DNA from: a virus
Taxonomy: Duplodnaviria; Caudoviricetes
Strand: one strand, 5' to 3'
Virus record (IMG/VR): IMGVR_UViG_3300028833_000158
Span: 1,274-65,273 of that record
DNA: 64,000 nt
Positions 1-60,266 of the stretch are shown here, piece after piece. Both the position numbers and the translations under genes were made by a program. Numbering within the stretch: the stretch's first letter is position 1; every line of letters starts with the position of its first letter. The notes beneath the pieces are model-generated. The model searched no databases, was not told the origin of the DNA, and saw nothing but the letters and a program-made list of their open reading frames with translations.

Positions 1-8
1 CTGCAGAG

Positions 9-1394
9 TTGAGAAGTCGTCTTTCCAGATATGGTGTAATTCATGATGATCAGTTAAATAAGGCTATATTGTCTATAGGTGATACTACGATGGAGCATTC
101 AGACATAATTGATGTATCTGGAGATGAGTTTATTGAACACAAACTTAACAGAACAGAATTTCAGCATCCTGGGTATTATACACCAAATCTTAGGCCGACT
201 GTCGTTTACAAATGGCATAGTGCTTCATTAGAAGAAGATCCATCAGGAAGACTTAATCCTACTGTTTGGTTTGACTTTGCTGAGAATGTTCCTATACACG
301 AAGGAGATGTGTTTGTAACTACTCATTTCGTATCAGATCCAAGAATGATTAATGATGACAACTTGTTAAGGAACCGTATAAGAGGAGCCGTCGAGCAGAT
401 GGCTAAAAATGCAACAAAAAATGGAAAACTTCCATATACCATTCCTGACAGCGAACTTATGCACTGTACAAGAAGTATTCAGAGATTGCTTAAGCAGTAT
501 CAGCAGTCCCATCCGAATTTTGTAAATAAGTTAACTCATTCTATTGGAACTTATTACGTAGTAGATTCTGACTACCTTGAGCATCATGGTATTTTAGGAA
601 TGCATTGGGGAGTAAGACGGTTCCAGAATAAAAATGGATCTCTTACTCCTGCTGGAAGAGATAGGTATTTAAAAGGCGGAAGAAATTCTGAAAGTAAATC
701 TGAATCCGAGTCAAAGTCTGAAAATAACCAAGATGAAAAGTATGGTTTTAGTGCTGTAGGTATGGTAACGTTAGCTTATGCCGGAGCTTATCTGGCATTG
801 TTCGGAATTGCTATTGGAAGTGAAGTTGCTGCAGCAGCTAAAGAAAAACATCGTGAAAAGAAAGCAGAAGAAGAATTATTCGCTGAGGATAAGCAGTACG
901 GTCTTAAGAAAGAAGATCTTAAGAAATGCAATCCAAATTTTGGAAAAGACGGTTATAATAATAACTGTCCAAAATGCTCTACCGTAATGGAACTCAGAAA
1001 AAGAGGAATGGATGTACAAGCAAATTCTGGAAGTGGTCAGACAATGAAAGAAATGTGCTCATGGTTTAAGAATTGCAAGTACGAGAGTGATATGCATGTT
1101 TCAGCAGCAAAAGAAAAGATACTAAGCTATCCTCCAGGATCCAGCGGATTCGTTTCTGGATTTTACAAAGGTTTTGGCGGTCATGTTGTGCACTGGACAA
1201 ATGTTGGCGGAGAAATACGAATCGAGGACGGACAGAGTGGAAAGGTATATACCTGGGATCAGGCAGTGAAAAGGTATAATTGGCAAGAGGATAGATATTC
1301 TGTAGCAAGATTAGACAATTGTGCTATAAATGAAAAAGCCATGAAGAAGGCCGGAGTTTATACAGAATATGAAGAAGGAGACAAAAAGAAATGA
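9..1394 (+). CDS. HHG-motif putative virion protein with C-terminal papain-like (Tox-PL/glutamine deamidase-like) domain; 5' end may lie outside the window
   Basis: Internal YLEHHGILGMHWGVRRFQN motif, then a hydrophobic helix, then NCPKC..MELRKRGMDVQA / GGHVVHW / IEDGQSG (Cys-His-Asp papain-fold pattern). The frame is open to the window edge. Confidence 0.65.
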   Translation: MRSRLSRYGVIHDDQLNKAILSIGDTTMEHSDIIDVSGDEFIEHKLNRTEFQHPGYYTPNLRPTVVYKWHSASLEEDPSGRLNPTVWFDFAENVPIHEGDVFVTTHFVSDPRMINDDNLLRNRIRGAVEQMAKNATKNGKLPYTIPDSELMHCTRSIQRLLKQYQQSHPNFVNKLTHSIGTYYVVDSDYLEHHGILGMHWGVRRFQNKNGSLTPAGRDRYLKGGRNSESKSESESKSENNQDEKYGFSAVGMVTLAYAGAYLALFGIAIGSEVAAAAKEKHREKKAEEELFAEDKQYGLKKEDLKKCNPNFGKDGYNNNCPKCSTVMELRKRGMDVQANSGSGQTMKEMCSWFKNCKYESDMHVSAAKEKILSYPPGSSGFVSGFYKGFGGHVVHWTNVGGEIRIEDGQSGKVYTWDQAVKRYNWQEDRYSVARLDNCAINEKAMKKAGVYTEYEEGDKKK

Positions 1395-3232: not shown

Positions 3233-4081
3233 ATGAGCTATTATTACTATGTTGGAAGGTCTCCAGATTATTTGGAGCATCATGGGATTCTAGGAATGAA
3301 ATGGGGAGTTAGAAGATTCCAGAATAAAGATGGATCACTTACTCCGGAAGGGAGAGCTAGGTATGGCGATATTCTCACTAAGAAACAGATGCAGAACTAT
3401 ATTAAAGACTATAATCTTCGGACTGGAGCAAATAAAAAGATCACTAAAAACACTGTTTTCAAGACCGCTGACGGCATGTACGACTATAAAGGCCGCAAGA
3501 TGAATACGGATGTAACAGTTGATGATCCGATGAATGATGTAGAGAATAAAACCGAAACAAAGCCTAAGAAAATTTCTGATTTAACAGATTCTGAACTTGC
3601 AGCAATAAATAAAAGAATGCAGTTAGAGGAAGAATACAAAAAGCATTTGGACAATACGATTCCTCCTAAGAAAGTAAATTTCATCAAATCTTCTCTTGGA
3701 AATTTAAAGAATAATTTAGTAAATGATCTTCCTAAAGGAATAAGCAGCGGTCTTCAGAGTGCACTTTCTGATGCTATAAAAGATTCTTTAAAAACAAAAG
3801 AACCTCCAAAGAAAACAGACATGCACATGGACACAACAAAAGCTTCAGATAAGGATATAGCAGACCTAGCAACAAGATGGGAAAATTTGATGAAGATTGA
3901 AAGGAATAAAAGAGATTACGATAATCGTATGGCAGAAATTGGAGAAGAGATGCTATCCGATTATTGGCCTAAGGAAGACAAAGCTATTAAATATGACGAA
4001 AGATCTAAATCTGATATGGAAGGAAATCCGCTTAATCCTGACAATTACAGATACTATTTAGATGACAAGAGCAAGAAATAG
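3233..4081 (+). CDS. HHG-motif putative virion protein
   Basis: N-terminal YLEHHGILGMKWGVRRFQNKDGSLTPEGRARY, near-identical to the motif in 9..1394; immediately upstream of portal. Confidence 0.7.
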   Translation: MSYYYYVGRSPDYLEHHGILGMKWGVRRFQNKDGSLTPEGRARYGDILTKKQMQNYIKDYNLRTGANKKITKNTVFKTADGMYDYKGRKMNTDVTVDDPMNDVENKTETKPKKISDLTDSELAAINKRMQLEEEYKKHLDNTIPPKKVNFIKSSLGNLKNNLVNDLPKGISSGLQSALSDAIKDSLKTKEPPKKTDMHMDTTKASDKDIADLATRWENLMKIERNKRDYDNRMAEIGEEMLSDYWPKEDKAIKYDERSKSDMEGNPLNPDNYRYYLDDKSKK

Positions 4082-4107
4082 TTTCTTTGAGAAAGGAAAA
4101 ATTCAAA

Positions 4108-5367
4108 ATGGGTTTAAAAGATAGACTTCAGCATGGATGGAATGCCTTTCTCGGAAGAGACGGCCCCTACTATGATTATAGGGATTATGGTGAAGCATAC
4201 TTTACAAGACCCGATAGGGTTAGATTTACAAGAGGACATGAGCGTTCAATAATAAATGCTGTATACAATAGAATAGCTATTGACGCAGCCACAATTGACA
4301 TTCGTCACGTTCGAACTGATAAAGATGGAAGGTACACTGAAGAGATTAACAGTGGACTTAATGATTGTCTGTCTTTATCTGCAAATAAAGATCAGAACGG
4401 AAGACAGTTTATTCAGGATGTTGTCATGTCGCTTCTCGATGAAGGTTGCATAGCTATAGTACCTATAGATACCACAGTTGACATAACAAAGGGTGCTTTT
4501 GATGTTAATTCAATGCGTCCAGGTAAAATCGTTCAGTGGTATCCTGATTATGTTAGAGTTAAAGTATACAACGATAGAATTGGGCACGAGCAGGAGATAA
4601 CTCTCCCTAAAGAGTCGGTTGCAATAATAGAGAATCCGTTTTATTCAGTAATGAATGAACCTAGCTCAACCGCATCAAGACTTATGCGAAAGCTTAATTT
4701 GTTGGATACTATAGACGAACATAATTCAACAGGAAAGCTCGATATGATTATACAGCTTCCATACATTATTAAAACACCTGCTAGAAGACAGCAGGCTGAG
4801 AATAGGCGTAAAGACATAGAGCTTCAGTTGTCTAGTTCAAAGTATGGGATAGCCTATACTGATGGTACAGAAAGGATAACTCAGCTTAATAGATCAATAG
4901 ATAACAACATGATCGAACAGGTTGAATACTTCACCAATATGCTGTACAGTCAGTTAGGTATAACTCAGGCTATAATGGACGGAACTGCTGATGAAAAAGT
5001 CATGCAGAATTATTACACAAGAACAATTGAGCCTATAGTCTCTGCTATAACTGATGAAATAAAACGTAAATTTCTTACTAAAACGGCTAGAACCCAAGGT
5101 CAGTCGATTATGTTCTTTAGAGACCCGTTCAAACTTATGCCCATTGCTGATTTCGCGGAGTTGGCAGATAAGCTTACTAGGAACTGTATCGCTACTTCTA
5201 ACGAAATAAGACAGGCAATAGGAATGAAACCGGTTAATGATCCTCAGGCTGATCAGCTTATCAACAACAATCTTTCACAGCCGAAAGAGGCACTTGAAGG
5301 AGCTGAAGCAGTTGAGATAGATAAGAACCTTAAAGGTAAGAAAATGGAGGAAATTCAAAATGGGTAA
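4108..5367 (+). CDS. Portal protein (HK97-like)
   Basis: RLQHGWNAF, RIAIDAA..DIRHVR, GKIVQWYP..VRV.VYND, GKLDMIIQLPY, NEIRQ.IG..P; adjacent to protease/capsid. Confidence 0.9.
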   Translation: MGLKDRLQHGWNAFLGRDGPYYDYRDYGEAYFTRPDRVRFTRGHERSIINAVYNRIAIDAATIDIRHVRTDKDGRYTEEINSGLNDCLSLSANKDQNGRQFIQDVVMSLLDEGCIAIVPIDTTVDITKGAFDVNSMRPGKIVQWYPDYVRVKVYNDRIGHEQEITLPKESVAIIENPFYSVMNEPSSTASRLMRKLNLLDTIDEHNSTGKLDMIIQLPYIIKTPARRQQAENRRKDIELQLSSSKYGIAYTDGTERITQLNRSIDNNMIEQVEYFTNMLYSQLGITQAIMDGTADEKVMQNYYTRTIEPIVSAITDEIKRKFLTKTARTQGQSIMFFRDPFKLMPIADFAELADKLTRNCIATSNEIRQAIGMKPVNDPQADQLINNNLSQPKEALEGAEAVEIDKNLKGKKMEEIQNG

Positions 5368-7210
5368 AACCAGAGACTTTGGAGGTTACGCCACCAGGTA
5401 TAACATCAAGTGCGCTGACGGTCGTACAATAAGACCTAATGCATTTGATGATATGGACGGCGAAACAGTACCTCTTGTGTGGGATCACAATCATAAATCC
5501 CCATTGAATGTTCTCGGCCACGCTCTTCTTCACAAAAGAGATGATGGCGTTTATGCAGATTTATATTTCAATGAAGAGACTACTCAGGGCGCTAATGCTA
5601 AGGCTCTTGTAAAGAACGGTGATGTTAAAGCGCTCTCTATCTTTGCAAATGGTCTTGCCCAGGACGAAGCAAAGAACGTTATGCACGGAGTAATTCGTGA
5701 GGTTTCTCTTGTTCTTGCTGGAGCTAATCCTGGAGCTTTCATTGATACTGCTATGGCGCATAGTATTGATGGTGAAGATCCTGACGAGGCTATAATTTAT
5801 ATGACCGAAGATCCGATAACACATAGTTTTTATGGAATCGATAGTGCCGCAACAGAAGTTGATGAAAGTAATATCGATGAAGAAGAAATCGTCGAGCATT
5901 CGGATAAAAAAGATGATGAATCCGATGATAAAGATGATGAAACTTATGGAGACGTTATAGCTTCCATGACAGAAAAGCAGCAAAAAGTAGTCGCAGAACT
6001 TGTAGCAAGAGCTGCTATAAAGTCTGATGAATATGATAACAATTCCGATGATAAAGGAGAAAAAGAAATGAAGCACAATGTTTTTGACAATGATTCTGCT
6101 AGCGCTTATGTCGAGCATGGTTTAACCAAAGACGAACAGAAAATGATCATCGCAGACGCAGACAGATATGGATCACTCAAGCAGTCTTTCCTTGCTCATA
6201 GTGAAGAGCTTGGAATTAGCGGTGATGTTCTTATGCATGGAACCGACATCGAGTATTCTGAGGACAAACAGGCGTACATGGTAAATGATCCTTCATTCCT
6301 GTTCCCTGAAGCAAAGGCTCTCAACAATCCTCCTGCATGGATCAAGAGAGATACTGGTTGGGTTTCTGGAGTTCTTTCTGGAACCAAGCATGTTCCTTTC
6401 AGCCGTATCAAGTCTGTATTTGCTGACATCACCGAAGATGAAGCAAGGGCTAAGGGATACATTAAGGGTGATAAGAAGCTTGATGAGGTCTTCACTCTGC
6501 TTAGAAGAAGCACCGATCCCCAGACCATTTACAAGCACCAGTCAATGGATCGTGATGATGTTATCGACATCACCGATTTCGACGTTGTAGCTTGGATCAA
6601 GTCTGAGATGAGAATGATGCTCGACGAGGAGATCGCTCGTGCTATTCTCATTGGTGATGGAAAGCTTACTTCTGATAGAACTCACATTGCTCATGATCAT
6701 ATCAGACCTATCTGGCTTGATGACGATCTCTTCACCATTAAGACTCTTGTTGAGCTCGCTGCTAATGCTACTGATGATACTAAGGCTAAAGCTTACATCA
6801 GAGCTGCAGTTAAGGCTCGTAAGAACTACAAGGGATCTGGAAACCCTGTATTCTACACCACTGAGGATGTTCTTACCGATATGCTGCTTCTTGAGGATAA
6901 CATGGGGCATAGACTTTACAAGTCTGAGTCTGAAGTTGCTTCCGCTATGCGTGTAAGTAGGATCGTAACTGTTCAGGTCATGGAAGGACAGAGCAGAACT
7001 GTTGATAATGTTACAAGAAATCTCGTAGGTATCATCGTTAACCTTTCCGACTATACCGTAGGTGCAGATAAGGGTGGAGCTGTTGCTATGTTCGATGACT
7101 TCGACATCGATTACAACAAGCAGAAGTATCTGATTGAGACCAGATGCTCTGGCGCTCTTACTGTTCCTTACAGTGCAATCGTTATCGAGTCTGCTGTAGC
7201 TAACTCATAA
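5360..7210 (+). CDS. Prohead protease-major capsid protein fusion
   Basis: N-terminal HK97-type protease (VPLVWDHNH, LSIF, EVSLVLAGANPGA), acidic linker, C-terminal capsid domain (EMRMMLDEEIARAILIGDG, FDIDYNKQKYLIETRCSGAL). Confidence 0.9.
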   Translation: MGKTRDFGGYATRYNIKCADGRTIRPNAFDDMDGETVPLVWDHNHKSPLNVLGHALLHKRDDGVYADLYFNEETTQGANAKALVKNGDVKALSIFANGLAQDEAKNVMHGVIREVSLVLAGANPGAFIDTAMAHSIDGEDPDEAIIYMTEDPITHSFYGIDSAATEVDESNIDEEEIVEHSDKKDDESDDKDDETYGDVIASMTEKQQKVVAELVARAAIKSDEYDNNSDDKGEKEMKHNVFDNDSASAYVEHGLTKDEQKMIIADADRYGSLKQSFLAHSEELGISGDVLMHGTDIEYSEDKQAYMVNDPSFLFPEAKALNNPPAWIKRDTGWVSGVLSGTKHVPFSRIKSVFADITEDEARAKGYIKGDKKLDEVFTLLRRSTDPQTIYKHQSMDRDDVIDITDFDVVAWIKSEMRMMLDEEIARAILIGDGKLTSDRTHIAHDHIRPIWLDDDLFTIKTLVELAANATDDTKAKAYIRAAVKARKNYKGSGNPVFYTTEDVLTDMLLLEDNMGHRLYKSESEVASAMRVSRIVTVQVMEGQSRTVDNVTRNLVGIIVNLSDYTVGADKGGAVAMFDDFDIDYNKQKYLIETRCSGALTVPYSAIVIESAVANS

Positions 7211-7225
7211 TCTTAAGTAATTTTA

Positions 7226-7255
7226 GCCATCCCGGGCGTAAAAACTCGGGGTGGT
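7226..7255 (+). promoter_or_regulatory. Conserved 11-bp hairpin with CGTAAAAA loop (copy 1)
   Basis: GCCATCCCGGG-CGTAAAAA-CTCGGGGTGGT; structural twin at 16924-16953. Confidence 0.6.
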
Positions 7256-7277
7256 ATTATTGGTAAAGGAGACACCA

Positions 7278-7838
7278 ATGATTACTATACATGTTCCTGA
7301 ATCTAAAGGCAAAGATTATTGGGACCCTAAAAAGGAAGAATTTGTGACTATTCCTTCAACAAAGGCCTATGATTTAAATCTCGAACATTCTTTAATATCG
7401 ATTTCCAAATGGGAATCTAAGTATCATATTCCATTCATTTCAAAAGAATCCCACACTGAGGATCAGGTTTTGCATTACATAAAATGCATGACTATTAACC
7501 AGAATGTTCCAGATTCTGTTTACGAGAATTTAACTGTTGATAACATAAAAGCAATATCGGATTACATAAACGATCCGATGAGCGCTACGACTGTTAATAA
7601 ATTACCAGGAATAGATAAGTCAAGAGAAGTTGTTACTTCAGAGTTGATTTATTATTGGATGATAGCGCTTCAAATACCTTGTGAGTTTGAAAAATGGCAT
7701 TTGAATAGACTATTGAAGTTAATAGAAGTATGTAACGTTAAGAATACTCCGCCTAAGAAGATGAGCAAAAACGAGATCATGGCACGTAATAAATCTCTTA
7801 ATGCCGCTCGTAGAGCGAAATACAATACGAAAGGCTAG
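7278..7838 (+). CDS. Probable second tail assembly chaperone
   Basis: LEHSLISISKWESKY..PF, TSELIYYWMIALQIP.E.EKWHLNRL..LI; lies upstream of the gp10-like and tape measure genes. Confidence 0.6.
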   Translation: MITIHVPESKGKDYWDPKKEEFVTIPSTKAYDLNLEHSLISISKWESKYHIPFISKESHTEDQVLHYIKCMTINQNVPDSVYENLTVDNIKAISDYINDPMSATTVNKLPGIDKSREVVTSELIYYWMIALQIPCEFEKWHLNRLLKLIEVCNVKNTPPKKMSKNEIMARNKSLNAARRAKYNTKG

Positions 7839-7849
7839 GAAAATTCAAA

Positions 7850-8236
7850 ATGAGTTCAGCAATCACATGTACAGTTAAAGGTAATTTTAAGAAAACTAAT
7901 TCGTTTCTTGAGAGATGTTTAAACTTTGTAAAACTTGGAAGGCTGGACCATTATGGACGTGTAGGAGTAGAGGCTTTTAGAAACAACACTCCTAAATACA
8001 CTGGATTAGCGGCATCTTCTTGGTATTACAAGATAGAAAGAAACGATCAAACTGCTAGTCTTATATTTTGTAATGATGACATAGAAGGTGGATTAAATGT
8101 GGCTATACTTATTGCTTATGGACACGGCACCAGAGGAGGTGTTTATGTTCCAGGTGTTGATTATATAACGCCATCTATGAAAAAGGTTCTTGTAGAAGTA
8201 GCTAATGATATGAGAAAGGAGATAGGGTCATTATGA
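7850..8236 (+). CDS. HK97 gp10-like tail completion protein
   Basis: KGNFKKT..FL, TP..TG..ASSWYY.I, VAILI.YGHGTRGG.YV.G.DYI.P. Confidence 0.6.
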   Translation: MSSAITCTVKGNFKKTNSFLERCLNFVKLGRLDHYGRVGVEAFRNNTPKYTGLAASSWYYKIERNDQTASLIFCNDDIEGGLNVAILIAYGHGTRGGVYVPGVDYITPSMKKVLVEVANDMRKEIGSL

Positions 8237-11200
8237 GTGCTGACATTATTGATACTAATGTTGTGCAGCTAAGATTTGACAATAGAGAATTTGTCAATAA
8301 CGTCAACCATAGTGTCGAAGCTGTAGAATCTTTAAAAGATTCTCTTAACTTTGATTCAACGTCTTTTGACAGTTTAACAAAAGCCGCTAATAATATTGAC
8401 TTGTCTGCTGTAGCTGCTAATATAGAATCATTATCTGATAGGTTTTCTACATTTGGAATTGTAGGAATGACCGCTATTCAGAAAATTACCGAAGAGGTCA
8501 TGAACCTTGGAGGAAAGTTAGTAGGCCTTCTTGCAAAACCTTGGAAACAGATAGTAACTGGTGGTTGGAGTAGAGCCTCCAATATTGGACAGGCTACATT
8601 CCAGCTTGAAGGTCTGTTCGGTAAGACAGAAGAAGGTGTCGCTAAGCTTAACATGACAATGAAAGCTACAAGCGACCAGGTAATAGCTCTTTCTAAACAA
8701 AGTGGCGATTTAATAGTAGCTATGAACGCTGCTGACTATGCTGTTGCAGATACAGCTTATGGTCTTGATTCGGCTGCTAAAGCTGCTTCAGTTCTTGCAA
8801 CTTCAGGTGTTGATGTTCTTCATTTCTCTGAAGATTTGAAAGATGCAAACGGTTTGATGAGAACCGAAATGCAGGTCGCATTGAGAGCAATTTCTGGTGT
8901 TGCTTCAATGGCAAACAGAAGTTATGACGATGTTGCTCGAGTGTTTGAAAGAGTATCTGGTGCCGGAAGAGTAATGGGTGATGATCTTAACTCTTTGGCT
9001 AGTTATGGTCTTAATGCAGCTGCAACATTAAGAGATTACCTTAATGATCTTGGCGTTACAGTAAATGCGACAGAGCAAGACATTCGAGACATGGTGTCAC
9101 ATGGCGAAATAGACTTCATGACGTTCGCTAAAGCAATGGACAATGCGTACGGCGACCATGCTAAAGATGCTAACAACACTTTTAGTGGTGCTTTTAGCAA
9201 CATGAAGTTTGCTTTGTCTAAAATCGGTGCGGATTTCATCTCTCCGATAAGAACTAAGATGGTTCCACTTTTTAACGATGTTCGAATAGCCATTAACAAC
9301 GTAAGGAAAGCTCTGAATTTCAAAATGAAATTTCCTTGGGTTGAAGAAGAGATTAGTATTGTAGAACTGTTTACGAATGTCATAACTAATCTTACAGCTA
9401 AAGCCCACGATTTGTTCACAGCTTGGAATGGTGGGCAGACCGTTATGGAAAAAGCCATGGCTGGTTTAGCAGAGTTTACCGGCGTGTCAATGGTTGAAAT
9501 AAAAAACGTATATGATGGAGTAGAAAAAGGAACTATAAAGTCTGCTGACGCAATAAGGAGACTTATAAGTATCACTTCTAATAGTGGTAAAGACATGCGA
9601 GAAGTGTTTAAGACACTTTCCGAGTCCCTTGGCGAGACAGAAGATGATATTTACAGAATGTGCTATAATGGCGAAATTTCTTTTGAGGATTTTTCGAATG
9701 CTGTATCATCAACATTTGGAAATCTCGTGCAGGAAACGAGAATTAGTCAATTAGCACAGCTTTTTAATAATGTTATACAGGCTGTTGTAAACTTGGCAAG
9801 TACAGTTACTTCTATAGTAGGCCCTGCAATATGGGCATTCTTCCAGGTATTTACTGGAGGAGGTATAAAAAGTGTTATTGATGTAACTAGTGCTTTTTCA
9901 GAATTCACAAAAAGGCTTATACTTTCGAGACAGAATCAGGAAAAAGTAAGAAGAGTTGCTTTTAGACTGTTTATGGTTCTTAAGAGTGGTTTAAAAATAG
10001 TTGCTCGTCTTGCTTCATCTGCTTTTAAAATTGTCGAAAGTATGGCACCGTTGATTGGCCATGTATTAGACTTTGTAGATGTACTTTCAGAAGTAATAGA
10101 GTATCTTGTAAATATTGTAGTAGAATCTAATCTGCTTTCTTCTACGATAAGTGTATTATGCAATGTTATAAAGTTAGCTGGATACATAATAGTAAATGTT
10201 CTTAAAACATTGATGGTTCTTATAGAGCCTGTTATAAGAGGAATTAGTGAAATATTTGCATTCCTTGCTAGAAGTATAGGTAGTGTTGATGTTTCTTTCT
10301 TAGATGTTATTATAGAAAGATTCAGAGATCTTCTTGCAACGGTTGCAAATGGTGGTTTAGCATATGTTCTTCAGAATTTAATTGGTACAATATTCTATAC
10401 GATAGCTTCTGTATTTAGAGCTATGACGTTAACATTTTCATGGTTCAATAATATGTTGCAGAATGCTGCAAATACTGTAGCTAATATTATCGATAGAATA
10501 ACCACAATATTCAGAAATTTTAGAGATGTTGTAATAAATCTGTTTAATGGAATAAAAGACTTCTTCAACAATGACTTCAACTTAGAAACCGCTATAGCAA
10601 TGTTTGGCCGTTTGGTTGGTTTGTCGGCAATGATTAGACTTGCTACCGGTATAAGAGGTATTGGAAGAGCTCTCGATGGTTTTGCTAATATTGTAAACTC
10701 TAATGCTTTAGTAAATGTTACGGCTGCTATAAAAACTGTTGCTAGAGCTGTTCTTGAATTCTCAATAGCAATGGTTCTTGTGTCGTCTATACCTAGAGAA
10801 AATTTAAGTACAGCAATCACACTGTTTTCTACATTGGTTGCCGCTATTATAGCGTTCATGGTTGTATTTTACGGTTATCAGCTTATTCTTAACCATATGA
10901 ATAATAAGATAATATCTGATCCGTATGTAAAATTCATGAATAAACTTAGTGCATCTATAAATGCAATGATGGCTAATGTCGGTAGAGCTGCCGTTATAAT
11001 GTCATTCGGTTTTCTTTTAATGTCAATAGCACTTGCATTAGGATTCATGATCAAGGGAATAGTTCAGCTTAACGAGCTCCCCATGAATACATTTACCGAT
11101 GGATATTATAGACTTGTAGCGATTTTCTCTCTATTGGCCGGATTTTTTGCAATAATAGCTTTTGCTCAAAGGTCAATAGTCCAGGCCAGCGGTGCTCAAT

Positions 11201-14200
11201 TTATTACCAACAATAATATTAGCACGCACAACGGCATGATGGGTGTAGCTGTAACATTAATGGCGTTGCTTGTTGTTGTAAAGGCATTTGAGACAATAAT
11301 AGTTGAGTATTCGCAGATAGATCCCGATCAGTTTACTGCCGGATTTGCTTATATTGCTTCGACATTAATGATTATGGCATCAATGATTGCCATAATTGGC
11401 CTTGCAGTTAAGAATGCAGGTTTTGGTATGGTCGGAGCATCAATAGCGATGCTAAGTTTCCTAGTCGTTCTTCATGGGTTTATTGATATTATACGAGATT
11501 ATACTAAATTAATAAAGAATTTTAGAAGTGTTGATCAGCTTAAGCTTGCTTTAGGAACAGTATTAACAATATTAGTATTCCTTACAGTTGCAATTTCAGC
11601 TATAGGTCTTGCTCTGACATATTTTGGAGGAGGAAGTGCTTTTTCAGCATCTATCAAGAATGGACTATCATTTACTAACAATGCTCCGAAGTTCTTGGGT
11701 GTTGTGATGACTATAGTGTCATTAGCTGTGGCTTTGCAGTCTGTAAGTTTGTTAATAATGGCTATAAATTATGCCGGAATAGAGAAAGCTTGGGCTGCTA
11801 TAGGAATAATATTTGTAATATTAGGTGGCGTATTTGCCTCGATGATGGCTATAAGAGGTGTTAAAGCTGGAAGTATAGCTGGAGTTGCAGCAATATTACT
11901 TGAATTGGCTCTTGTATTACCTGTTCTTATGAATTATGATCCAATGAAGGTACTATCAAGCGCTACAGGAATGTTGCTTGTAATATATGCTATAAGTTTC
12001 ATGCTTAAAGCAATGGGAGAAGCAAAAGTAGATATTGCAAAAGGAATAGGATTTTCTATACTTCTTTTTACACTTCTTTTAATGCTATCTTCTGCTTTTA
12101 TGATTCTTGCAAATATGGATTCGGCATCTGTTCTTTCATCAGGTTTAGCAATAGCAGCTACTTTAGCAGCATTCGGTGTAGCACTTAAATTTGCAAGTGG
12201 ATTTAAGTTTAAACCAGGTATATTCCGTACCATTGTTGCAATGCTCGGCGCTATAATACCGTTCTTGCTGCTTTTGACCGCAGTTAAAGACTTTGATCCT
12301 GTTAAGTTTTCAGTTCTTGGAACAGTTCTTTCGGTTTTAGCAGTATCAATAGGCGGAGCAATCAGACTTATGAAAGGCGTCATATCTGCCGGAGCTCAAA
12401 CTATTTTTGCATCGTTTATAGGAATAGCTATAGCATTATCGGTGCTTATGGCAGCTCTTGTCCTTTCAGCAAATGGCATAACAACTGACATATCAACGAT
12501 AGCCGGATTTGCTGCAGCTTTGATGTTGTTACTTCCTACTATAGCAGCTATGGCTGCAATATCGATTGCACTTAGTCGTTTTAAAGCAACGTTTGCAAGT
12601 GTTGGTGTTTTAGCTATAATAGCAGGAATTTTAGCTGGTTTAATAACTGTATTTTCGGTTATTGCTAGGTTTTCAGATGTTAACGCTACTGTAAGTTTGA
12701 TAGAAGGTCTTCAGTGGGGATTATTAAGATTATCAGCGTTCATGACTGTACTTGCTGGTTTTGCAATTGCTTTAGGATTTTTGTTCATGACTCCTTTAGG
12801 AATTGCTGACTTTGCATTAGGTCTTCTTGCAGTCGGTTCAATGCTGGCTACTATATCTGTATTCATAGGCATGATAGCAGCTTCAGCTACACTTGGAGAT
12901 GCTAATTCAACAGTATATTTATTAGAGAATTTAGGAACAATCCTTGATTCTATGGTTCCTTTCCTGCTTAAGATGGCCGGAATGTGTGCTTTATTCGGAT
13001 TAGTTTCACCTTTAGTTTTAGGTGGGGCTATTGGAATGGGTGCTATTCTTACTGTAATAGCAGGATTTGCTGGAATGATTGCTGCTATAGCACTAATAGG
13101 CAATCCCGAAGAAACTGTAGATCTTTTAAGAGGATTGATATTTGCGATGGACAACTTTAATGACTTTTTAGGTCATTTTATGCTTGTCCTTACATTATTA
13201 GGTTCCGTTGCTCCAGTAGCATTTTTAGGAGCTATGGTTCTCAATACTATATTTGCTATACTTACTAATTTCACAGCATCAATAGCTGTTATAGGAACTG
13301 TTGGAAACACCAGTGACACACTAACAGTGATGACAATGCTTGTCGATTCTCTTAGAGAATTGGTTAATGTATTTATGATAGTAATGGTGCTCGGTGCTAT
13401 GGGTGCCGCTGTTCTTACAGGAATGATATTAATATCTGAGAGTATGTCTCTGCTTTTAGGTCTTTCATTCATGATTGGGCAGATTGGTTCTATAAGAAAG
13501 CCGATAATTACAGGAATAAATACTATACTATTTACCGCTGTTGCTATGCTCGAAGCTACAAGAGCAATGGGCGATATAGAATTAGGTTCAATACTTAACT
13601 TTATATTTGCTATGAGTTTAATTGCTCTTACACCAATAAATGGTGTAGCAAAGTTTTCTCAGATTGGCACCATGCTGCTAATGATGGGCATGTCTAGTGT
13701 TTATATTCTTAAAGGAACACAGACTGCTATAAGCATGATCGAAGGTTTGAGAAGGGCTTCATATCTAATAAGAGACATAGTTAGAATTGATTCAAAGAAA
13801 TTAGTAAATCTTAGTCGTGATATTTTATCGACATCAACTACGATCAATGCTATTTATGCTAGCATAGGCGGTTGGGTTGGTCATAGTATAGCAGAAGGTG
13901 TTTTAAGTGGTGGAAGTCTTGGTGCAGTTGTCGAAGCAGGTGTTATTCTTGCTCATGCGTTGGAAGAGAGCATCAGAGATACAGCTCATATACATTCATA
14001 CAGCCCTTTATATGGTGAAATAGGTGGATGGTCTTCTAGAAGTATGGGAATAGGAGTTCTTTCCGAATCAGGATTCCTGATGAATTCTGGAAGCGATATG
14101 ATGGGTAATTTCGGCTCATTAATGGGTAACTTGTCGACCGTTTACGGTACAGACTCTGGCGCTCAGTATGTAGAGAGCTTCTCTGAGACATTGTTTTCTG

Positions 14201-16905
14201 GATTACAGTATGTTGTTCAAGGCTGGGGTGATTTATTCACTTATGCTGGTCAATCTGGAGCGCTTGGTGGCTTTGGGCACATGATTTTTGATGATAAAGA
14301 AATCAAAGCTCTTACCAACAATAATAACAACTATGCTGCCTCTGTAGATGCCGTAAATAATGCAAACACAAGACTTATTAATCAGAATGGTACGAGACCT
14401 TACTTTAGTCCTAACTTAGTTAAAGAGGTTTCAGAAGATGAGTATATCGATTATTTAATGAATGAAGCCATGCCTGACTTTGGCGATTTGTCAAGCTGGT
14501 TTGAAGGACTTAAAGAGTCATTTAATTTAGGTTCTATTACTGAAGGACTTGAGGACTTTGGTGGAGCTATAGAAGATGTTGGAGATGTTTCCGGTTCAGC
14601 TTCAAGTAAGATTTCAGATCTTCAAAGGAAGATCGATAATCTTATGGAAGATTATGAGAATCGAATGGAAACTGCTAAAGAAAGAGCAAGCAAAGACTTG
14701 TTTAAGAATGTCGACGAACAGGGAGAGGATTTCCTCGAAAAGATTCAAGACATAATGAAGCAGTACAATAACATTTACAAGTCTGCTGTAGAAGAAACTA
14801 ATAACCAGGATTTGTTCGCTGAAGTAAAAGAGAATGATGAATCGTTTGCTCCTGAAACATTATTAAAGAATCTCGAAAATCAGGTAGATCAGGTTAACGA
14901 GCTCAACACGATTGTTCTATCACTTAGCCAGAGAGTTGGCGACGAAAATCTTAGACAAGCAATTTCTAATATGGACGTCGATCAATTACCTCAGCTTAGA
15001 GCTCTTTATAGAATGTCGTCGAGCGAATTAGCTAATTACGAGAAACTTTATCAGGAAAAAGTCGCAGCTAATCAAGAGAAAATTCAAAATAAGTTAAGTG
15101 GAGAGATTTCTCAGATAACCGGAAAGTATACAAACATAGCATCGTTCGTTGCTACAGATGCGTCTACTCAGTTATTAGAGCATAATCTTCAGACTCAGAT
15201 AGATAAGCTTAACGAATACAATGAAACAGTATCGTCTTTGATGGTTCGTATTAAGGATGTTAATCTCAGAGAGGCAATTTCCAACATGGGAGTTGAATCT
15301 GTAGAGGAACTTAAGATTCTTAATGCTATGACAGATGAACAGCTTGATAATTATGTATCTTTGTATAATGTGAAGATGCAGGGAGAGCTTAAGAATGTCA
15401 CAAACGAACTTTCTGGTCAATTAGGTTCTCTTTTAGGCGAAGCTATTGATATTGAGGAATTTTATCAGGCTTATAAGCTTAAGATGGGCGATTTGTCAGA
15501 AATGGTTAGTTCAGATGATTCTGGAACTAAGAACGTTGGCAGATCAGCAGGTCGTACTATTGGAACGGGAATGAGCGAAGGAATAAGTGAAACATATAGC
15601 TCGGAGAACGCATATCAGACAGGTAAAGACTATACTATGTCTGTAGCTAAAGGTATGTCTGATCCTGAAGTAATTACGTTCCTTGAAACAACTGCTGATG
15701 GAATTATTAACATGATTATTGAGCCTCTTCAGGAAGCTCATGAAGATTACAAAGCTGGCGGAATAGAAGTAGTAACAGCACTTCTGTCCGGAATAAATGA
15801 AGCAAAAGATGAAGGTTTTGATGAGGTTATTGATGGCATAACATCTAGAATACTTGAAACATTTGCTGAATGTGACGACGATTATAGAGAGAGTGGACAT
15901 GCTTTAATAAATGCTTTCTGTCAGGGAATAGAAGAAGGTATGAGTTATGAGCAGGGGTTCGAAGGAACCATAGATTCGATAATAAATACTATCATAGCTA
16001 CTTTCGAAGAAAGCTATGAAGCAGATTTCCCTCAAATCGGTCACAATGTACTTCATTATGTAAGTGAAGGAATAGAAGAGGCAAAAGATCAAGGATTTGA
16101 AGAAACAATCGACGACATAGTTAACATAATTATTCAGACTTTATCTATTGAAGATACTTATGAAGACTATTTCGAATGCGGTCATACAATAGTTCACAAA
16201 CTTTGTGAAGGTATAGATGACGCTAAAGATTGGAGCTTCACTAGTTGCATAGAAGACATCGTAACTAGAATTAAAACAGCTATAACTAATAAGAATGATG
16301 TTATTGTTGCAGTTGGTGAGTTTATTTCGTTTGGTTTGGCTAGAGGAATGAATTCAGAAAGAGCACTTCATTCTGTAGAAACTTCTGCTGCCGCCGTTGC
16401 TAGTAAAGCAATAGGAAAAGCTAAAGAGGTTCTTGATTCGCATTCACCCTCAAGAGTATTTATTGAGATTGGTCGTTTCATAGATGAAGGTCTCGCAATA
16501 GGCTTAAGGCAGTATTCTGGTCTTGCTGAAGATGCTTCTACTGATGTTGCTGAGACTTCTATTTCAGCTGTTCAGGAAGCAATAAATCAGCTTTCAGGCA
16601 TGCTTGACGGATCAATCGATGTTAACCCTGTAATCACACCAACACTTGATCTGAGCGAAGTAAATGCTAGATCTCAAGCTCTTGCTGGCATGTTCAGTAA
16701 TCGTCAGATTGCAGTTCAGGCTCGAGCAGATGAGCAGCAGACAGAGATGATGAATCAGCTTGGAAATATTCTTGCTGAGCAGAACTCCGAACCCAGAAGC
16801 ATTACATTCAATCAGACTAACAATAGCCCTAAAGCATTGTCAAGAACTGAAATCTATCGTCAGACACGAAACGGTTTCTCACAACTTGCCAATGCTATTT
16901 CCTAA
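8233..16905 (+). CDS. Tape measure protein (2890 aa)
   Basis: Very long helical ORF between tail chaperones and Dit; N-terminal VVQLRFDN..F, tape-measure-like segment, long hydrophobic middle, C-terminal HSPSRVF..IG.FIDEGLAIG. Confidence 0.95.
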   Translation: MSADIIDTNVVQLRFDNREFVNNVNHSVEAVESLKDSLNFDSTSFDSLTKAANNIDLSAVAANIESLSDRFSTFGIVGMTAIQKITEEVMNLGGKLVGLLAKPWKQIVTGGWSRASNIGQATFQLEGLFGKTEEGVAKLNMTMKATSDQVIALSKQSGDLIVAMNAADYAVADTAYGLDSAAKAASVLATSGVDVLHFSEDLKDANGLMRTEMQVALRAISGVASMANRSYDDVARVFERVSGAGRVMGDDLNSLASYGLNAAATLRDYLNDLGVTVNATEQDIRDMVSHGEIDFMTFAKAMDNAYGDHAKDANNTFSGAFSNMKFALSKIGADFISPIRTKMVPLFNDVRIAINNVRKALNFKMKFPWVEEEISIVELFTNVITNLTAKAHDLFTAWNGGQTVMEKAMAGLAEFTGVSMVEIKNVYDGVEKGTIKSADAIRRLISITSNSGKDMREVFKTLSESLGETEDDIYRMCYNGEISFEDFSNAVSSTFGNLVQETRISQLAQLFNNVIQAVVNLASTVTSIVGPAIWAFFQVFTGGGIKSVIDVTSAFSEFTKRLILSRQNQEKVRRVAFRLFMVLKSGLKIVARLASSAFKIVESMAPLIGHVLDFVDVLSEVIEYLVNIVVESNLLSSTISVLCNVIKLAGYIIVNVLKTLMVLIEPVIRGISEIFAFLARSIGSVDVSFLDVIIERFRDLLATVANGGLAYVLQNLIGTIFYTIASVFRAMTLTFSWFNNMLQNAANTVANIIDRITTIFRNFRDVVINLFNGIKDFFNNDFNLETAIAMFGRLVGLSAMIRLATGIRGIGRALDGFANIVNSNALVNVTAAIKTVARAVLEFSIAMVLVSSIPRENLSTAITLFSTLVAAIIAFMVVFYGYQLILNHMNNKIISDPYVKFMNKLSASINAMMANVGRAAVIMSFGFLLMSIALALGFMIKGIVQLNELPMNTFTDGYYRLVAIFSLLAGFFAIIAFAQRSIVQASGAQFITNNNISTHNGMMGVAVTLMALLVVVKAFETIIVEYSQIDPDQFTAGFAYIASTLMIMASMIAIIGLAVKNAGFGMVGASIAMLSFLVVLHGFIDIIRDYTKLIKNFRSVDQLKLALGTVLTILVFLTVAISAIGLALTYFGGGSAFSASIKNGLSFTNNAPKFLGVVMTIVSLAVALQSVSLLIMAINYAGIEKAWAAIGIIFVILGGVFASMMAIRGVKAGSIAGVAAILLELALVLPVLMNYDPMKVLSSATGMLLVIYAISFMLKAMGEAKVDIAKGIGFSILLFTLLLMLSSAFMILANMDSASVLSSGLAIAATLAAFGVALKFASGFKFKPGIFRTIVAMLGAIIPFLLLLTAVKDFDPVKFSVLGTVLSVLAVSIGGAIRLMKGVISAGAQTIFASFIGIAIALSVLMAALVLSANGITTDISTIAGFAAALMLLLPTIAAMAAISIALSRFKATFASVGVLAIIAGILAGLITVFSVIARFSDVNATVSLIEGLQWGLLRLSAFMTVLAGFAIALGFLFMTPLGIADFALGLLAVGSMLATISVFIGMIAASATLGDANSTVYLLENLGTILDSMVPFLLKMAGMCALFGLVSPLVLGGAIGMGAILTVIAGFAGMIAAIALIGNPEETVDLLRGLIFAMDNFNDFLGHFMLVLTLLGSVAPVAFLGAMVLNTIFAILTNFTASIAVIGTVGNTSDTLTVMTMLVDSLRELVNVFMIVMVLGAMGAAVLTGMILISESMSLLLGLSFMIGQIGSIRKPIITGINTILFTAVAMLEATRAMGDIELGSILNFIFAMSLIALTPINGVAKFSQIGTMLLMMGMSSVYILKGTQTAISMIEGLRRASYLIRDIVRIDSKKLVNLSRDILSTSTTINAIYASIGGWVGHSIAEGVLSGGSLGAVVEAGVILAHALEESIRDTAHIHSYSPLYGEIGGWSSRSMGIGVLSESGFLMNSGSDMMGNFGSLMGNLSTVYGTDSGAQYVESFSETLFSGLQYVVQGWGDLFTYAGQSGALGGFGHMIFDDKEIKALTNNNNNYAASVDAVNNANTRLINQNGTRPYFSPNLVKEVSEDEYIDYLMNEAMPDFGDLSSWFEGLKESFNLGSITEGLEDFGGAIEDVGDVSGSASSKISDLQRKIDNLMEDYENRMETAKERASKDLFKNVDEQGEDFLEKIQDIMKQYNNIYKSAVEETNNQDLFAEVKENDESFAPETLLKNLENQVDQVNELNTIVLSLSQRVGDENLRQAISNMDVDQLPQLRALYRMSSSELANYEKLYQEKVAANQEKIQNKLSGEISQITGKYTNIASFVATDASTQLLEHNLQTQIDKLNEYNETVSSLMVRIKDVNLREAISNMGVESVEELKILNAMTDEQLDNYVSLYNVKMQGELKNVTNELSGQLGSLLGEAIDIEEFYQAYKLKMGDLSEMVSSDDSGTKNVGRSAGRTIGTGMSEGISETYSSENAYQTGKDYTMSVAKGMSDPEVITFLETTADGIINMIIEPLQEAHEDYKAGGIEVVTALLSGINEAKDEGFDEVIDGITSRILETFAECDDDYRESGHALINAFCQGIEEGMSYEQGFEGTIDSIINTIIATFEESYEADFPQIGHNVLHYVSEGIEEAKDQGFEETIDDIVNIIIQTLSIEDTYEDYFECGHTIVHKLCEGIDDAKDWSFTSCIEDIVTRIKTAITNKNDVIVAVGEFISFGLARGMNSERALHSVETSAAAVASKAIGKAKEVLDSHSPSRVFIEIGRFIDEGLAIGLRQYSGLAEDASTDVAETSISAVQEAINQLSGMLDGSIDVNPVITPTLDLSEVNARSQALAGMFSNRQIAVQARADEQQTEMMNQLGNILAEQNSEPRSITFNQTNNSPKALSRTEIYRQTRNGFSQLANAIS

Positions 16906-29122: not shown

Positions 29123-30853
29123 ATGTTATCAAATACTGCAACACCGTATTATTACGGATTATTCCGGGATGCAGTATTAAGAGGAGAAATACCTGTAAAC
29201 AGGGAAATCTCTTTGGAAATGAACCGTATAGATAATCTCATACGCAACCCGGATTATTATTACGACGATAGAGCAGTTGAAGGATGGATTGCCTTTTGCG
29301 AAAACGAATTGACACTAACTGATGGATCAGATATGCATATGCTTGACTCATTTAAATTATGGGGCGAGCAAGTATTCGGATGGTGGGAATTCATAGAAAA
29401 GTCAACATATGATCCAGAAATTGGACGATATGTTTCAAGACTAGCGAAGAAACGTCTTATAAATAAACAGTATCTCATAGTTGGTCGAGGTGCTGCTAAG
29501 TCATTATACGACACTTCGATTCATGGATATTTTTTAAATGTTGACACTACAGCGACTCATCAGATAACAACAGCACCTACTCTTCAGTTGGCTGATGAGG
29601 TATTAAGTCCATTAAGAACTGCTATTACAAGAGCTAAAGGACCATTATTTGCTTTCTTAACGGAAGGATCTTTACAGAATACAACCGGTAGTAGAGCAAA
29701 TAGACAAAAATTAGCAGCAACAAAGAAAGGAATAGAGAATTTCCTTACTGGTTCATTGCTCGAAGTTAGACCTATGTCTATAGACAAACTTCAGTCAATG
29801 AGATGTAAGATTGCTACTATTGATGAGTGGCTATCTTCTGATGTAAGGGAAGATGTTATGTCAGCTCTTGAGCAGACTTGTTCGAAGGTTGACGATTGGC
29901 TAATAATTTCAACATCATCTGAAGGTACTGTTCGTAATGGTCCTGGAGATGACATAAAGATTGAGTTAAGTAAAATATTAAGAGGAGAATACAACAATCC
30001 TCACGTAAGTATATTCTGGTATAAGCTTGATGATTTAGAAGAAGTTGGAATGCCTGAAATGTGGCTCAAAGCAAATCCTAATTTAGGAAAGACTGTAAGC
30101 TATGACACATATCAGACTGAAGTAGAAAGAGCTGAAAACGTTCCAAGTACAAGGAATGATATTTTAGCAAAGAGATTTGGAATACCTATGGAAGGATTCA
30201 CATACTTCTTCACGTATGATGAGACGGAGCCTCAACGACTTTACAATCTTAAAGGTATGGCTTGTTCTATGGGCGCAGACTTATCACAGGGAGACGACTT
30301 CTGTTCATTTAGTTTCTTGTTCCCGCTTCCCGGAGGAGCATTTGGAATAAAGACCAGGAATTATATTTCAAGTAGAACATTAGATAAGTTACCTCAAGCC
30401 ATGAGAAACAAGTATGAAGAGTTTATAGCAGAAGGTTCATTAATTGTTCTAGATGGCGTTATACTGGATTTAATGGTCGTTTATGACGAGCTTGATGACT
30501 TTATAACTAAGATGGAATATGATATAAGATGCTTTGGATATGATCCATATAATGCTAAAGAATTTGTTGAGAGATGGGCTTCCGAGAATGGTCCATTCGG
30601 AATTGAAAAAGTTATACAGGGAAGTAGAACTGAATCAGTTCCTCTTGGAGAAATTAAGAAATTGGCAGAAGATCGTTTATGGATATTTAATGAGGGAATA
30701 ATGCAATTTGCAATGGGTAACTGTATAGTTATGGAAGACACAAATGGTAACAGAAAACTCCTTAAGAAACGCTATGAGGCAAAGATTGACCCTGTAGCAA
30801 GTTCTATGGACGCTTTCATTGCTTACAAGAACAATCAAGATGCATTCGAATAA
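29123..30853 (+). CDS. terL: Terminase large subunit
   Basis: Walker A (GRGAAKS), Walker B (ATIDEW), nuclease motifs GADLSQGDDF and KIDPVA..MDA. Confidence 0.95.
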   Translation: MLSNTATPYYYGLFRDAVLRGEIPVNREISLEMNRIDNLIRNPDYYYDDRAVEGWIAFCENELTLTDGSDMHMLDSFKLWGEQVFGWWEFIEKSTYDPEIGRYVSRLAKKRLINKQYLIVGRGAAKSLYDTSIHGYFLNVDTTATHQITTAPTLQLADEVLSPLRTAITRAKGPLFAFLTEGSLQNTTGSRANRQKLAATKKGIENFLTGSLLEVRPMSIDKLQSMRCKIATIDEWLSSDVREDVMSALEQTCSKVDDWLIISTSSEGTVRNGPGDDIKIELSKILRGEYNNPHVSIFWYKLDDLEEVGMPEMWLKANPNLGKTVSYDTYQTEVERAENVPSTRNDILAKRFGIPMEGFTYFFTYDETEPQRLYNLKGMACSMGADLSQGDDFCSFSFLFPLPGGAFGIKTRNYISSRTLDKLPQAMRNKYEEFIAEGSLIVLDGVILDLMVVYDELDDFITKMEYDIRCFGYDPYNAKEFVERWASENGPFGIEKVIQGSRTESVPLGEIKKLAEDRLWIFNEGIMQFAMGNCIVMEDTNGNRKLLKKRYEAKIDPVASSMDAFIAYKNNQDAFE

Positions 30854-32033: not shown

Positions 32034-32112
32034 TACTTGTCCATTTTGTCAGAAAGAGATGGAACCAATAGAGCAGGAGCTCCTTGATCGTATGAAGGAG
32101 GAAGTAAGATGA
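31918..32112 (+). CDS. Zinc-ribbon protein
   Basis: CTSC...CPFC; RBS GGAGGAG; overlaps the 3' end of 31407..32033. Confidence 0.55.
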   Translation: MKKPMWKYVMAELGAGIECTSCHHKLKAMTVVMGDVALDTCPFCQKEMEPIEQELLDRMKEEVR

Positions 32113-33002
32113 GTTATAAGGTTGATCCGAATAGAAAGCCGGATAGCCCTCTTGCAAAGTGTGCTATTTGGACTTCTAACTGCACTTTCCCTAGAAATAC
32201 AAAAAAGAAACCGTCTGAATGGACTATTATACCTCATGTAATTGATGGTAATCCTCCAGCGGAAGGCCAGGCTAGAGCTTTCCAAAATCCAAACAGAGGT
32301 GCCTCTGCTCACTACATAATAGATTCTATAGGAACTATTGTGCAGAATGTGCCAGAGTGCTGCAGGGCTTGGACTACGGGAGGCGATCTGAATGTTAATG
32401 GACTTACCGGATCAGAAATAGATCATGAAGCTATAACTATGGAGATTGCCAATGTCACACCTAGACCTTACTGTGGCATGACACCTGAAGCTGTCAACAG
32501 TCTTGTTATGCTTATGGTTGATATTTGCCAGAGAAATGGAATACCGGCTGTAAAATGGTCTGGTAACAAGTTTCTTGCAGGTACGCCTGAGCAGAATGTA
32601 GCAGCTCATAGATGGTTTGCTAAAAAATCATGTCCTGGAGATTTCCTGTATAATAATATGGGTGCCGTATGTGATACAGTTAACATGTATCTTACAAAGG
32701 GTCTTCCTACAAATGGATATTTCATTAACGGACTTGACTATAGCGTAGTATTTGACCCTGTTTACTATGCTAACAAGTATGCAGACCTTGAAGATGCTTT
32801 TGGCTTTGATGAGTTCATGCTTTGGAAGCATTTCTGTGACTTTGGTATGAATGAATTCAGACAGGGATCAGATAACTTTAATCCCCAGGTATACAAAGAC
32901 AATAATCCTGATATTTCAAACTCTCCTTATGGTGAGGATGAAAAAGGATACTATGATCACTTCGTACAGTTTGGACAGTACGAAAATAGAATACACAATT
33001 AA
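32109..33002 (+). CDS. Endolysin: N-acetylmuramoyl-L-alanine amidase with C-terminal repeats
   Basis: IIPH, ASAHY.I, ITMEIAN, AHRWFAKKSCPG (Amidase_2 Zn ligands); two F.P.YY...Y.D...HF..FG..E.R repeats. Confidence 0.9.
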   Translation: MSYKVDPNRKPDSPLAKCAIWTSNCTFPRNTKKKPSEWTIIPHVIDGNPPAEGQARAFQNPNRGASAHYIIDSIGTIVQNVPECCRAWTTGGDLNVNGLTGSEIDHEAITMEIANVTPRPYCGMTPEAVNSLVMLMVDICQRNGIPAVKWSGNKFLAGTPEQNVAAHRWFAKKSCPGDFLYNNMGAVCDTVNMYLTKGLPTNGYFINGLDYSVVFDPVYYANKYADLEDAFGFDEFMLWKHFCDFGMNEFRQGSDNFNPQVYKDNNPDISNSPYGEDEKGYYDHFVQFGQYENRIHN

Positions 33003-60264: not shown

Positions 60265-60266
60265 AA

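Follow-up and report, generated by a model that had tools for sequence, protein, structure and literature searches.

ORF1, the first open reading frame (ORF) in a 64,000-nucleotide (nt) stretch of phage DNA, encodes a protein in which a short conserved peptide, the DUF7211 or HHG tag, joins an N-terminal module to an exchangeable cargo (tip) that ends in a papain-fold domain. The stretch, called the window below, comprises bases 1274-65273 of a 65,273-base IMG/VR virus record, and coordinates are window positions unless a record base is named. The proposal that ORF1 is a polymorphic, tag-borne papain-fold effector is supported by its architecture, by the family of its C-terminal domain and by the exchange of its tip between sister phages. 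The features on which the argument rests are as follows, with lengths in amino acids (aa) and TM denoting transmembrane.

1-1394, + strand: ORF1, 514 aa; stop codon at 1392-1394, start 150 nt upstream of the window
1-569, + strand: N-module, residues 1-240; rare, with two further phi-E-His words and a 'QH.GYYTPNL' motif
570-668, + strand: DUF7211/HHG tag, residues 241-273, D-Y-L-E-H-H-G-I-L-G-M-H-W-G-V-R-R-F-Q-N...R-Y; Pfam PF23847, 33.5 bits
669-746, + strand: Ser/Glu/Lys low-complexity linker, from the sequence
747-815, + strand: hydrophobic TM-like helix, residues 300-322; Kyte-Doolittle 19-mer mean 1.78
912-1349, + strand: Tox-PL1/Gln_amidase-type domain, residues ~355-500, from signature, profiles and model
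963-968, 1182-1184, 1227-1229 and 1233-1235, + strand: predicted catalytic residues Asn372-Cys373, His445, Asp460 and Gln462, respectively
588-1699, + strand: exchangeable cassette relative to sister contig L004, from stepwise DNA identity

Much of this layout was anticipated by an earlier note on the same DNA. It had described HHG modules in ORF1 and in the ORF at 3233, and both were confirmed as DUF7211 (570-668 at 33.5 bits and 3266-3364 at 37.7 bits). The TM-like helix that it placed behind the tag is present at residues 300-322 (Kyte-Doolittle 1.78), and the protein at 3233, of 282 aa and with no enzyme-family match, indeed has an unrelated C-terminus. Its start for ORF1 at window position 9 was wrong. 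The frame runs off the 5' end of the window, and the likely start is an ATG at record base 1123, behind a AAAGGGAGAG ribosome-binding site. The true gene start, the partner gene ORF2 and a third copy of the tag go beyond what the note had described.

The DUF7211 tag and exchange of the ORF1 tip

The exchange was observed in contig L004 (JGI sample 3300041748), which has the same gene order as this phage. L004 is 98.5% identical in DNA to record bases 1-1911. There follow 1061 nt in this phage against 667 unrelated nt in L004, after which identity resumes at 94.6% from the ORF2 stop codon. When the two sequences were compared in 20-nt steps, 19-20/20 positions were identical up to the L-E-H-H codons, and 15, 15, 12, 11 and 5/20 over the remainder of the tag. 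Identity drops right after L-E-H-H, and therefore 'G-I-L-G-M-x-W-G...' moves with the cargo while 'Y-L-E-H-H' remains part of the upstream module. P0001, the protein of L004, matches ORF1 at 96% identity up to the tag; beyond it lie a coiled-coil stretch and a glycine-zipper helix in place of an enzyme. Clearly, the cargo has been swapped between sister phages by recombination, with the junction directly after the L-E-H-H codons, and the DUF7211 tag is the seam between a variable N-module and exchangeable cargo.

Shuffling on both sides of the tag extends beyond this pair. Non-enzymatic coiled-coil/helix tips like that of P0001 follow an ORF1-type N-module in P0002 and P0010, and the helix-plus-PL1 tip follows other N-modules in P0003-P0009 (37-68% identity). 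The tag was present in 118/120 listed matches of one search, and the tips of these proteins form 33 BLAST clusters, in a sample biased towards PL1 by a query that contained ORF1's own domains. Two or more tags were found in 36 proteins of the same sample. Variability of the C-terminus, which the earlier note had made a part of its proposal, was thus borne out by the other tip of L004 and by the 33 clusters. A constant part joined to diverse, recombined tips is one mark of polymorphic toxins, and it is seen here in the L004 swap, in the clusters and in the shuffled N-modules and tips.

The three copies of the tag score 33.5, 37.7 and 27.9 bits (37.7, 41 and 29.3 bits in a second scan), all above the Pfam cut-off of 27 bits for PF23847. 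The tag DNA of ORF1 and that of the ORF at 3233-4081 are 84% identical over 90 nt. That the copies are chance matches to a short motif was considered and rejected on the Pfam scores and on the 84% DNA identity between copies. No copy beyond these three was found in the 65-kb record. The tag is widespread: it precedes the tip in 98 of the 150 best representatives of PL1, in two versions, '...WGVRRFQN.DGSLT' and '...WGVRNGPPYPL'. According to precomputed Pfam annotation, its other partners include GNAT acetyltransferases, CW_7 and a glycine zipper. No mention of DUF7211, PF23847 or the GMKWG motif was found in a full-text search of some 8.4 million papers, in which the only two matches were unrelated.

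Some tag-bearing proteins resemble polyproteins. P0011 (806 aa), P0013 and P0019 have three tags per chain, and the chain of P0011 terminates in a PL1 tip.

The N-module of ORF1 has only two relatives in 5.8 billion proteins, to which P0010 adds a weaker local match, and the ESM Atlas returned no usable match to it. A 'QH-x-GYY[ST]PN[LN]' motif occurs upstream of the tag at ORF1 residues ~91-114 (window ~121-190) and in 19/269 fetched proteins. It usually stands right behind another L-x-His word, as in '...YLEH|AQHEGYYSPNL', and may be a second leader type with the same opening site.

The Tox-PL1 domain and its partner gene

The C-terminal domain of ORF1 belongs to the Tox-PL1/Gln_amidase family. 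Tox-PL1 is defined by an NC-H-DxQ signature (Zhang et al. 2012, PMC3482391), which is present in ORF1 as Asn372-Cys373, His445 and Asp460-Gly-Gln462. In an alignment of 90 relatives N28, C29 and Q118 (domain numbering) are invariant and H101 and D116 are conserved in at least 90%. A phmmer search with the domain gave 1412 matches at an expectation value (E) of 1e-3 or below and 156 at E<=1e-10 among 1.84 billion representatives clustered at 50%. Pfam PF15644 (Gln_amidase, 'Papain fold toxin 1') was matched at E<=1e-3 by 49/90 aligned relatives, and four fetched relatives exceed its curated cut-off (29-54 bits). With hhalign, the profile of the ORF1 subgroup matched a profile of six relatives at 99.8% probability (E 1.6e-29); four of the six were tested, and all four score above the PF15644 cut-off. 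The family assignment follows from this direct homology, as seen with phmmer, in the PF15644 matches of the relatives and with hhalign.

The domain was modelled with AlphaFold2 (AF2) at a predicted local distance difference test (pLDDT) score of 94.7 and a predicted template-modelling score (pTM) of 0.90. The geometry of the catalytic triad was judged from secondary-structure positions only: C29 begins helix 29-40, H101 lies in strand 100-107 and D116 in the adjacent strand 112-116. The best structural matches of the model are all papain-fold proteins, listed here with Z scores and, for the first, the root-mean-square deviation (rmsd).

SpvD: Z 11.8, rmsd 3.0, 142 residues aligned
YopQ: Z 10.9; Foldseek E 8.7e-5
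CdiA-CT toxin: Z 9.3
Staphopain C: Z 9.0
ComA peptidase: Z 8.9
OspI: Z 8.9

These results bear on several claims of the earlier note. Its NCPKC, GHVVHW and EDGQ motifs were confirmed and fall at alignment positions that either never vary or are conserved in at least 90% of the 90 relatives. Its assignment of a Tox-PL papain fold was sustained by the signature, by hhalign, by the AF2 model and by the structural matches, and the absence of a papain fold, which it had named as grounds for refutation, was not observed, since the model is a confident papain fold. The hidden Markov model (HMM) search that it proposed as a check aligned ORF1 to PF15644 over the whole profile, 1-114, with a score for ORF1 itself (17.2-18.1 bits) below the cut-off of 24.1.

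A short charged helix lies between the hydrophobic helix and the C-terminal domain of ORF1, and a TM-like segment is present in 40/89 relatives that combine tag and PL1. As judged from sequence and model, the cargo is a linker, a putative membrane helix and an apparently intact Tox-PL1 papain-fold cysteine hydrolase. The predicted reaction is peptide-bond cleavage or Gln/Asn deamidation, both of which fit. The PL1 tip is a putative toxin. A tblastn search located it (27-33% identity, lowest E 1e-9) at the end of genes of Arthrobacter and Microbacterium phages whose annotation reads 'MuF-like minor capsid protein', 'capsid maturation protease' or the two fused. It was also matched by tblastn in gene 2 of Mycobacterium phages, annotated 'VIP2-like toxin', and it occurs on tag-less proteins of loci L016, L017, L023 and L024. 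Tips common to other toxin families, a further mark of polymorphic toxins, are found on MuF-like, 'VIP2-like toxin' and tag-less proteins.

The PL1 cargo travels with a small downstream gene, ORF2.

1391-1711, + strand: ORF2, 106 aa; its start overlaps the ORF1 stop (ATGA)
1391-1624, + strand: ORF2 core, 78 aa, a small alpha/beta protein, from relatives and model
1625-1711, + strand: ORF2 extension, 27 residues, with a truncated tag F-L-E-H-H-G-V-K-G-M at 1667-1696; 27.9 bits against DUF7211

ORF2 relatives of 78-91 aa (21-62% identity) overlap the stop of the PL1 gene in loci L006, L007, L008 and L009. In the more distant PL1 loci L010 and L013 an HMM of the ORF2 family recognized the gene behind the tip (E ~5e-6 when 10 sequences were searched). 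The match to the gene at this position in L021 was weak (E 0.005), and L017 and L024 were borderline. Locus L022 (Longispora) was left out of the comparison of PL1 loci. ORF2-type genes thus lie directly downstream of PL1 tips in at least 6 other loci, and L004, which has no PL1 tip, also has no ORF2. Because ORF2 is linked to the tip and not to the phage backbone, it is a candidate inhibitor or immunity gene, possibly the cognate one of PL1.

L021, from a Ruminiclostridium genome bin, has four tag-led ORFs in an array on one strand (3578-8424). The first encodes a tag-helix-PL1 protein and is followed by the 81-aa ORF2-like gene.

In the model of the ORF2 core four strands lie between two helices, and most of residues 1-78 have pLDDT >90. 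A Foldseek search of the model against solved structures gave nothing at E<=1e-3, a search of 5.8 billion proteins gave no match to ORF2 except itself, and a related-locus search with the ORF2 alignment found one IMG/VR locus only. The 27-residue extension is present only in the ORF2 of this phage, is absent from its relatives and is poorly modelled (pLDDT <50 at 80-87 and 101-106). In L009 a complete tag-led gene begins 2 nt after the ORF2 relative. The most plausible origin of the extension is a deletion that fused ORF2 to the leader of a lost tag-led cargo gene and left this scar. The hairpin behind ORF2 was not called by a terminator scan, and no terminator is claimed at the right edge of the cassette.

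Virion context and proposed role of ORF1

CheckV rates the IMG/VR record 100% complete. Among named phages Faecalibacterium phage FP_oengus is the closest to it; human faecal phages come next. All long ORFs of the window are on the + strand, and a siphovirus virion module occupies the first 22 kb. This module includes a tail terminator, major tail protein (phrog_2645, E 4e-92), tail assembly chaperone, portal, prohead protease-major capsid fusion (phrog_3270, E 1.5e-206), Neck1-type protein, 2890-aa tape measure, Dit and minor tail proteins. TerL (29123-30853) is far from the other virion genes, a separate Amidase_2 lysin is encoded at 32109-33002, and searches of the 65-kb record for tyrosine integrase and resolvase-type recombinase domains gave no match. 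The phage, a 65-kb siphovirus of gut Clostridia, is probably virulent. Two of its genes bear on the role of ORF1.

3233-4081, + strand: second tag-led protein, 282 aa, with an N-terminal tag at 3266-3364; directly upstream of the portal gene; no enzyme family matched
5360-7210, + strand: prohead protease-major capsid fusion; its spacer has conserved 'hydrophobic-x-His' words

The virion gene order is unusual (1-30853): the connector genes are separated from the portal gene by those for the major tail protein and the chaperone, and TerL follows ~22 kb downstream of the portal gene. In the tape measure (8233-16905) only residues 136-332 match Pfam TMP_3. The N-terminus of a 991-aa protein encoded at 60261-63236 half-matches the tag (60318-60335, '...LYLEHYGTPRHSGRYPWGSG'); Pfam finds only helix-turn-helix (HTH) and sigma-r4 pieces in this protein.

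A tag-led gene lies directly upstream of the portal gene in this phage, L004, L005, L008 and FP_oengus. These genes abutting the portal, the place of the ORF1 gene between those for the tail terminator and the major tail protein, and the PL1 tips on MuF-like minor capsid proteins put ORF1 in a virion context, and the PL1 protein is probably a component of the particle. Hydrophobic-x-His is the invariable opening of the tag, and similar words occur in the spacer of the protease-capsid fusion. Two of them, at His134 and His293, are invariant in four relatives of the fusion (47-79% identity); His134 is just past the protease domain and His293 ~20 residues ahead of the conserved capsid core. These words are candidate maturation sites, and the fusion, whose protease is an S78 prohead protease, is a candidate for the enzyme that cuts at the tag. 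In the proteome, [ILVMFY]-E-H words number 13 against 7.2 expected from composition, and 8/13 lie in five virion-module proteins that hold 8.7% of the residues.

From the recombination seam and from the L-x-His words in tags and protease-capsid spacer we infer a route of head loading, cutting at L-x-His and host delivery modelled on phage T4. ORF1 would be a two-part late protein, and its tag would load the cargo into the procapsid in the manner of the capsid-targeting sequences of T4. The prohead protease would cut at the L-x-His word that opens the tag, and the freed cargo would leave the particle with the DNA. The hydrophobic helix would position the ejected cargo at the host membrane, where the PL1 enzyme may cleave or deamidate a host protein, so that take-over is aided or defence is blocked. 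In the phage-producing cell ORF2 would bind and silence the enzyme. We consider this account of ORF1 and ORF2 somewhat better than an even bet.

Several observations weigh against it. ORF1 scores 17.2 bits against PF15644 (E 0.011; 18.1 bits on rescanning), below the cut-off of 24.1. No ORF2-like gene is present in four more distant PL1 loci, L011, L012, L014 and L015, and ORF2 matches no Pfam family, Imm35 and SUKH included. VIA-align gave PepSY- and cystatin-like rows for ORF2 at Z 3.6-5.7, which is within noise and is not counted as evidence. Moreover, an enzyme injected in few copies may need no inhibitor. Three of the eight clustered [ILVMFY]-E-H words are the homologous tags themselves, and the 'L-x-His' pattern was defined after looking at the data. 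The ORF1 gene sits between the tail-terminator and major-tail genes, and this place beside tail genes would also fit a tail-borne protein. A literature search found no proteomic or functional data for any DUF7211 protein.

The best surviving alternative is that PL1 is a processing peptidase of virion assembly, which cuts tag-led or other head and tail proteins and is not directed at the host. Such a role was proposed for MuF-linked Tox-PL1 by Zhang et al. 2012 (PMC3482391). The leader-cleaving C39 peptidases ComA, LahT and PCAT1 are among the structural matches (Z 8.7-8.9), and many relatives are polyprotein-like with two or three tags. However, L004 keeps three tag-bearing genes without a PL1 tip (on a 7.3-kb contig that shows only part of its genome), the phage already encodes the S78 prohead protease, and a small partner gene so closely linked is more easily understood if the enzyme is harmful and needs an inhibitor than if it serves maturation. 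We regard an assembly peptidase as unlikely.

Slightly less probable again is a virion enzyme of the cell envelope, a membrane-anchored peptidoglycan peptidase of the NlpC/P60 or CHAP kind that would open the wall as the DNA enters. The papain-like fold, the hydrophobic helix and the position of the gene between tail-terminator and major-tail genes are consistent with this, and the weaker structural matches include a phage endolysin and Tse1, a peptidoglycan amidase (Z 5.7-6.2). Yet signature and sequence family are those of Tox-PL1, not of NlpC/P60 or CHAP, and the best structural matches SpvD, OspI and CdiA-CT act on intracellular proteins. The phage also has the separate Amidase_2 lysin, and a cognate inhibitor gene would be unusual for a wall hydrolase. 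Least probable is a weapon of the lysogen against competing bacteria in the style of MuF toxins, with ORF2 as a classical immunity protein, for which the polymorphic-toxin architecture with a downstream partner gene, the tip in common with MuF toxins and the relative in a Ruminiclostridium genome bin, possibly in a prophage, would speak, but which sits poorly with the lack of any detected integrase or resolvase-type domain in a 100%-complete record, with long ORFs all on one strand and with the restriction of MuF toxins to temperate phages in the survey of Jamet et al. 2017 (PMC5576092).

The ejected-effector account of ORF1 may be one instance of a wider system. In this tentative generalization, to which we give a little less than an even chance, DUF7211 would be a general protease-gated signal for loading into and ejection from capsids. 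It would define a second polymorphic phage effector system that is independent of MuF and widespread in phages of gut Clostridia, including apparently virulent ones, in which cargo-plus-inhibitor cassettes such as PL1 plus ORF2 are exchanged at the L-x-His|Gly seam.

Phage-carried effectors are known, among them T4 Alt and internal proteins, the P1 Dar proteins and MuF toxins. The handle differs here, as the carrier is a ~33-residue peptide with a Pfam DUF number and is new relative to the literature searched. The locus contributes a mapped swap between sister phages, a linked partner gene and a putative leader scar. The pairing with L004 is a natural before-and-after comparison, with the point of exchange fixed to a few codons, and PL1 and ORF2, as candidate enzyme and inhibitor, are open to direct cloning as a pair. 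If the proposed role is true, the tag would be a simple finder of injected cargo in uncultured gut phages and a possible tool for loading proteins into phage heads, and the known means of host take-over or anti-defence would be extended by a cysteine hydrolase that a phage carries, PL1, together with ORF2 as its inhibitor.

Comparison with known systems

The MuF toxins of Firmicutes phages are similar in design. Encoded in the head module as well, they combine a constant part for trafficking with C-terminal tips of toxin type that vary. Both systems include Tox-PL1 among their tips, and in both the protein is proposed to be delivered along with the DNA. Zhang et al. 2012 (PMC3482391) described MuF head proteins with Tox-PL1 tips, and a survey of MuF toxins found them in temperate phages only (Jamet et al. 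2017, PMC5576092), whereas no integrase was found here. The constant part in ORF1 is a ~33-residue peptide that may be N-terminal, central or repeated, while that of the MuF toxins is a portal-binding domain. The MuF / SPP1 gp7 domain (PF04233) had no match anywhere in the 65-kb record, in a search that detected the family in 5 control genomes, and ORF1 was rejected as a member of the MuF toxin family on this ground. The earlier note had called the HHG-based system analogous to MuF but distinct. This description fits, because the phage itself lacks a MuF domain and the PL1 tip occurs on MuF-like proteins of actinophages.

The internal proteins and Alt of phage T4 carry capsid-targeting sequences that are removed by the gp21 prohead protease. 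As with the DUF7211 tag, these are short leaders common to unrelated cargo proteins, and the first word of the leader recurs in a region of the capsid precursor that is itself processed, presumably so in this phage. There is no sequence similarity between the two, and for the tag packaging and cleavage are predicted. Unlike the T4 sequences, the tag has ~33 residues, is strongly conserved even between distant phages and in some cases lies within the protein. Packaging of Alt has been described, and effectors that are packaged and injected with phage DNA are an established concept (PMC5512222).

The cargo domain shares with Tox-PL1/PF15644 the NC-H-DxQ signature, the papain fold and a C-terminal place in modular proteins. 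It differs as a diverged subgroup with an HMM score below the Pfam cut-off, in the membrane helix ahead of it and in a partner that is neither Imm35 nor SUKH by Pfam.

Cpe1-Cpi1 is a papain-like interbacterial protease toxin with its immunity protein (PMC12136450; PDB 9l5u), and Cpe1 is a structural match of the PL1 model (Foldseek E 4e-3). Both systems have a small papain-fold tip, a Cys-His-Asp triad and a downstream gene, which encodes the cognate inhibitor in Cpe1-Cpi1 and a candidate inhibitor here. Cpe1 is delivered by a type VI secretion system (T6SS) or by contact-dependent inhibition (CDI) in Gram-negative bacteria and cleaves GyrB and ParE (PMC12136450). Cpe1, with these targets, is C39-like, whereas the tip of ORF1 is of the Tox-PL1 family.

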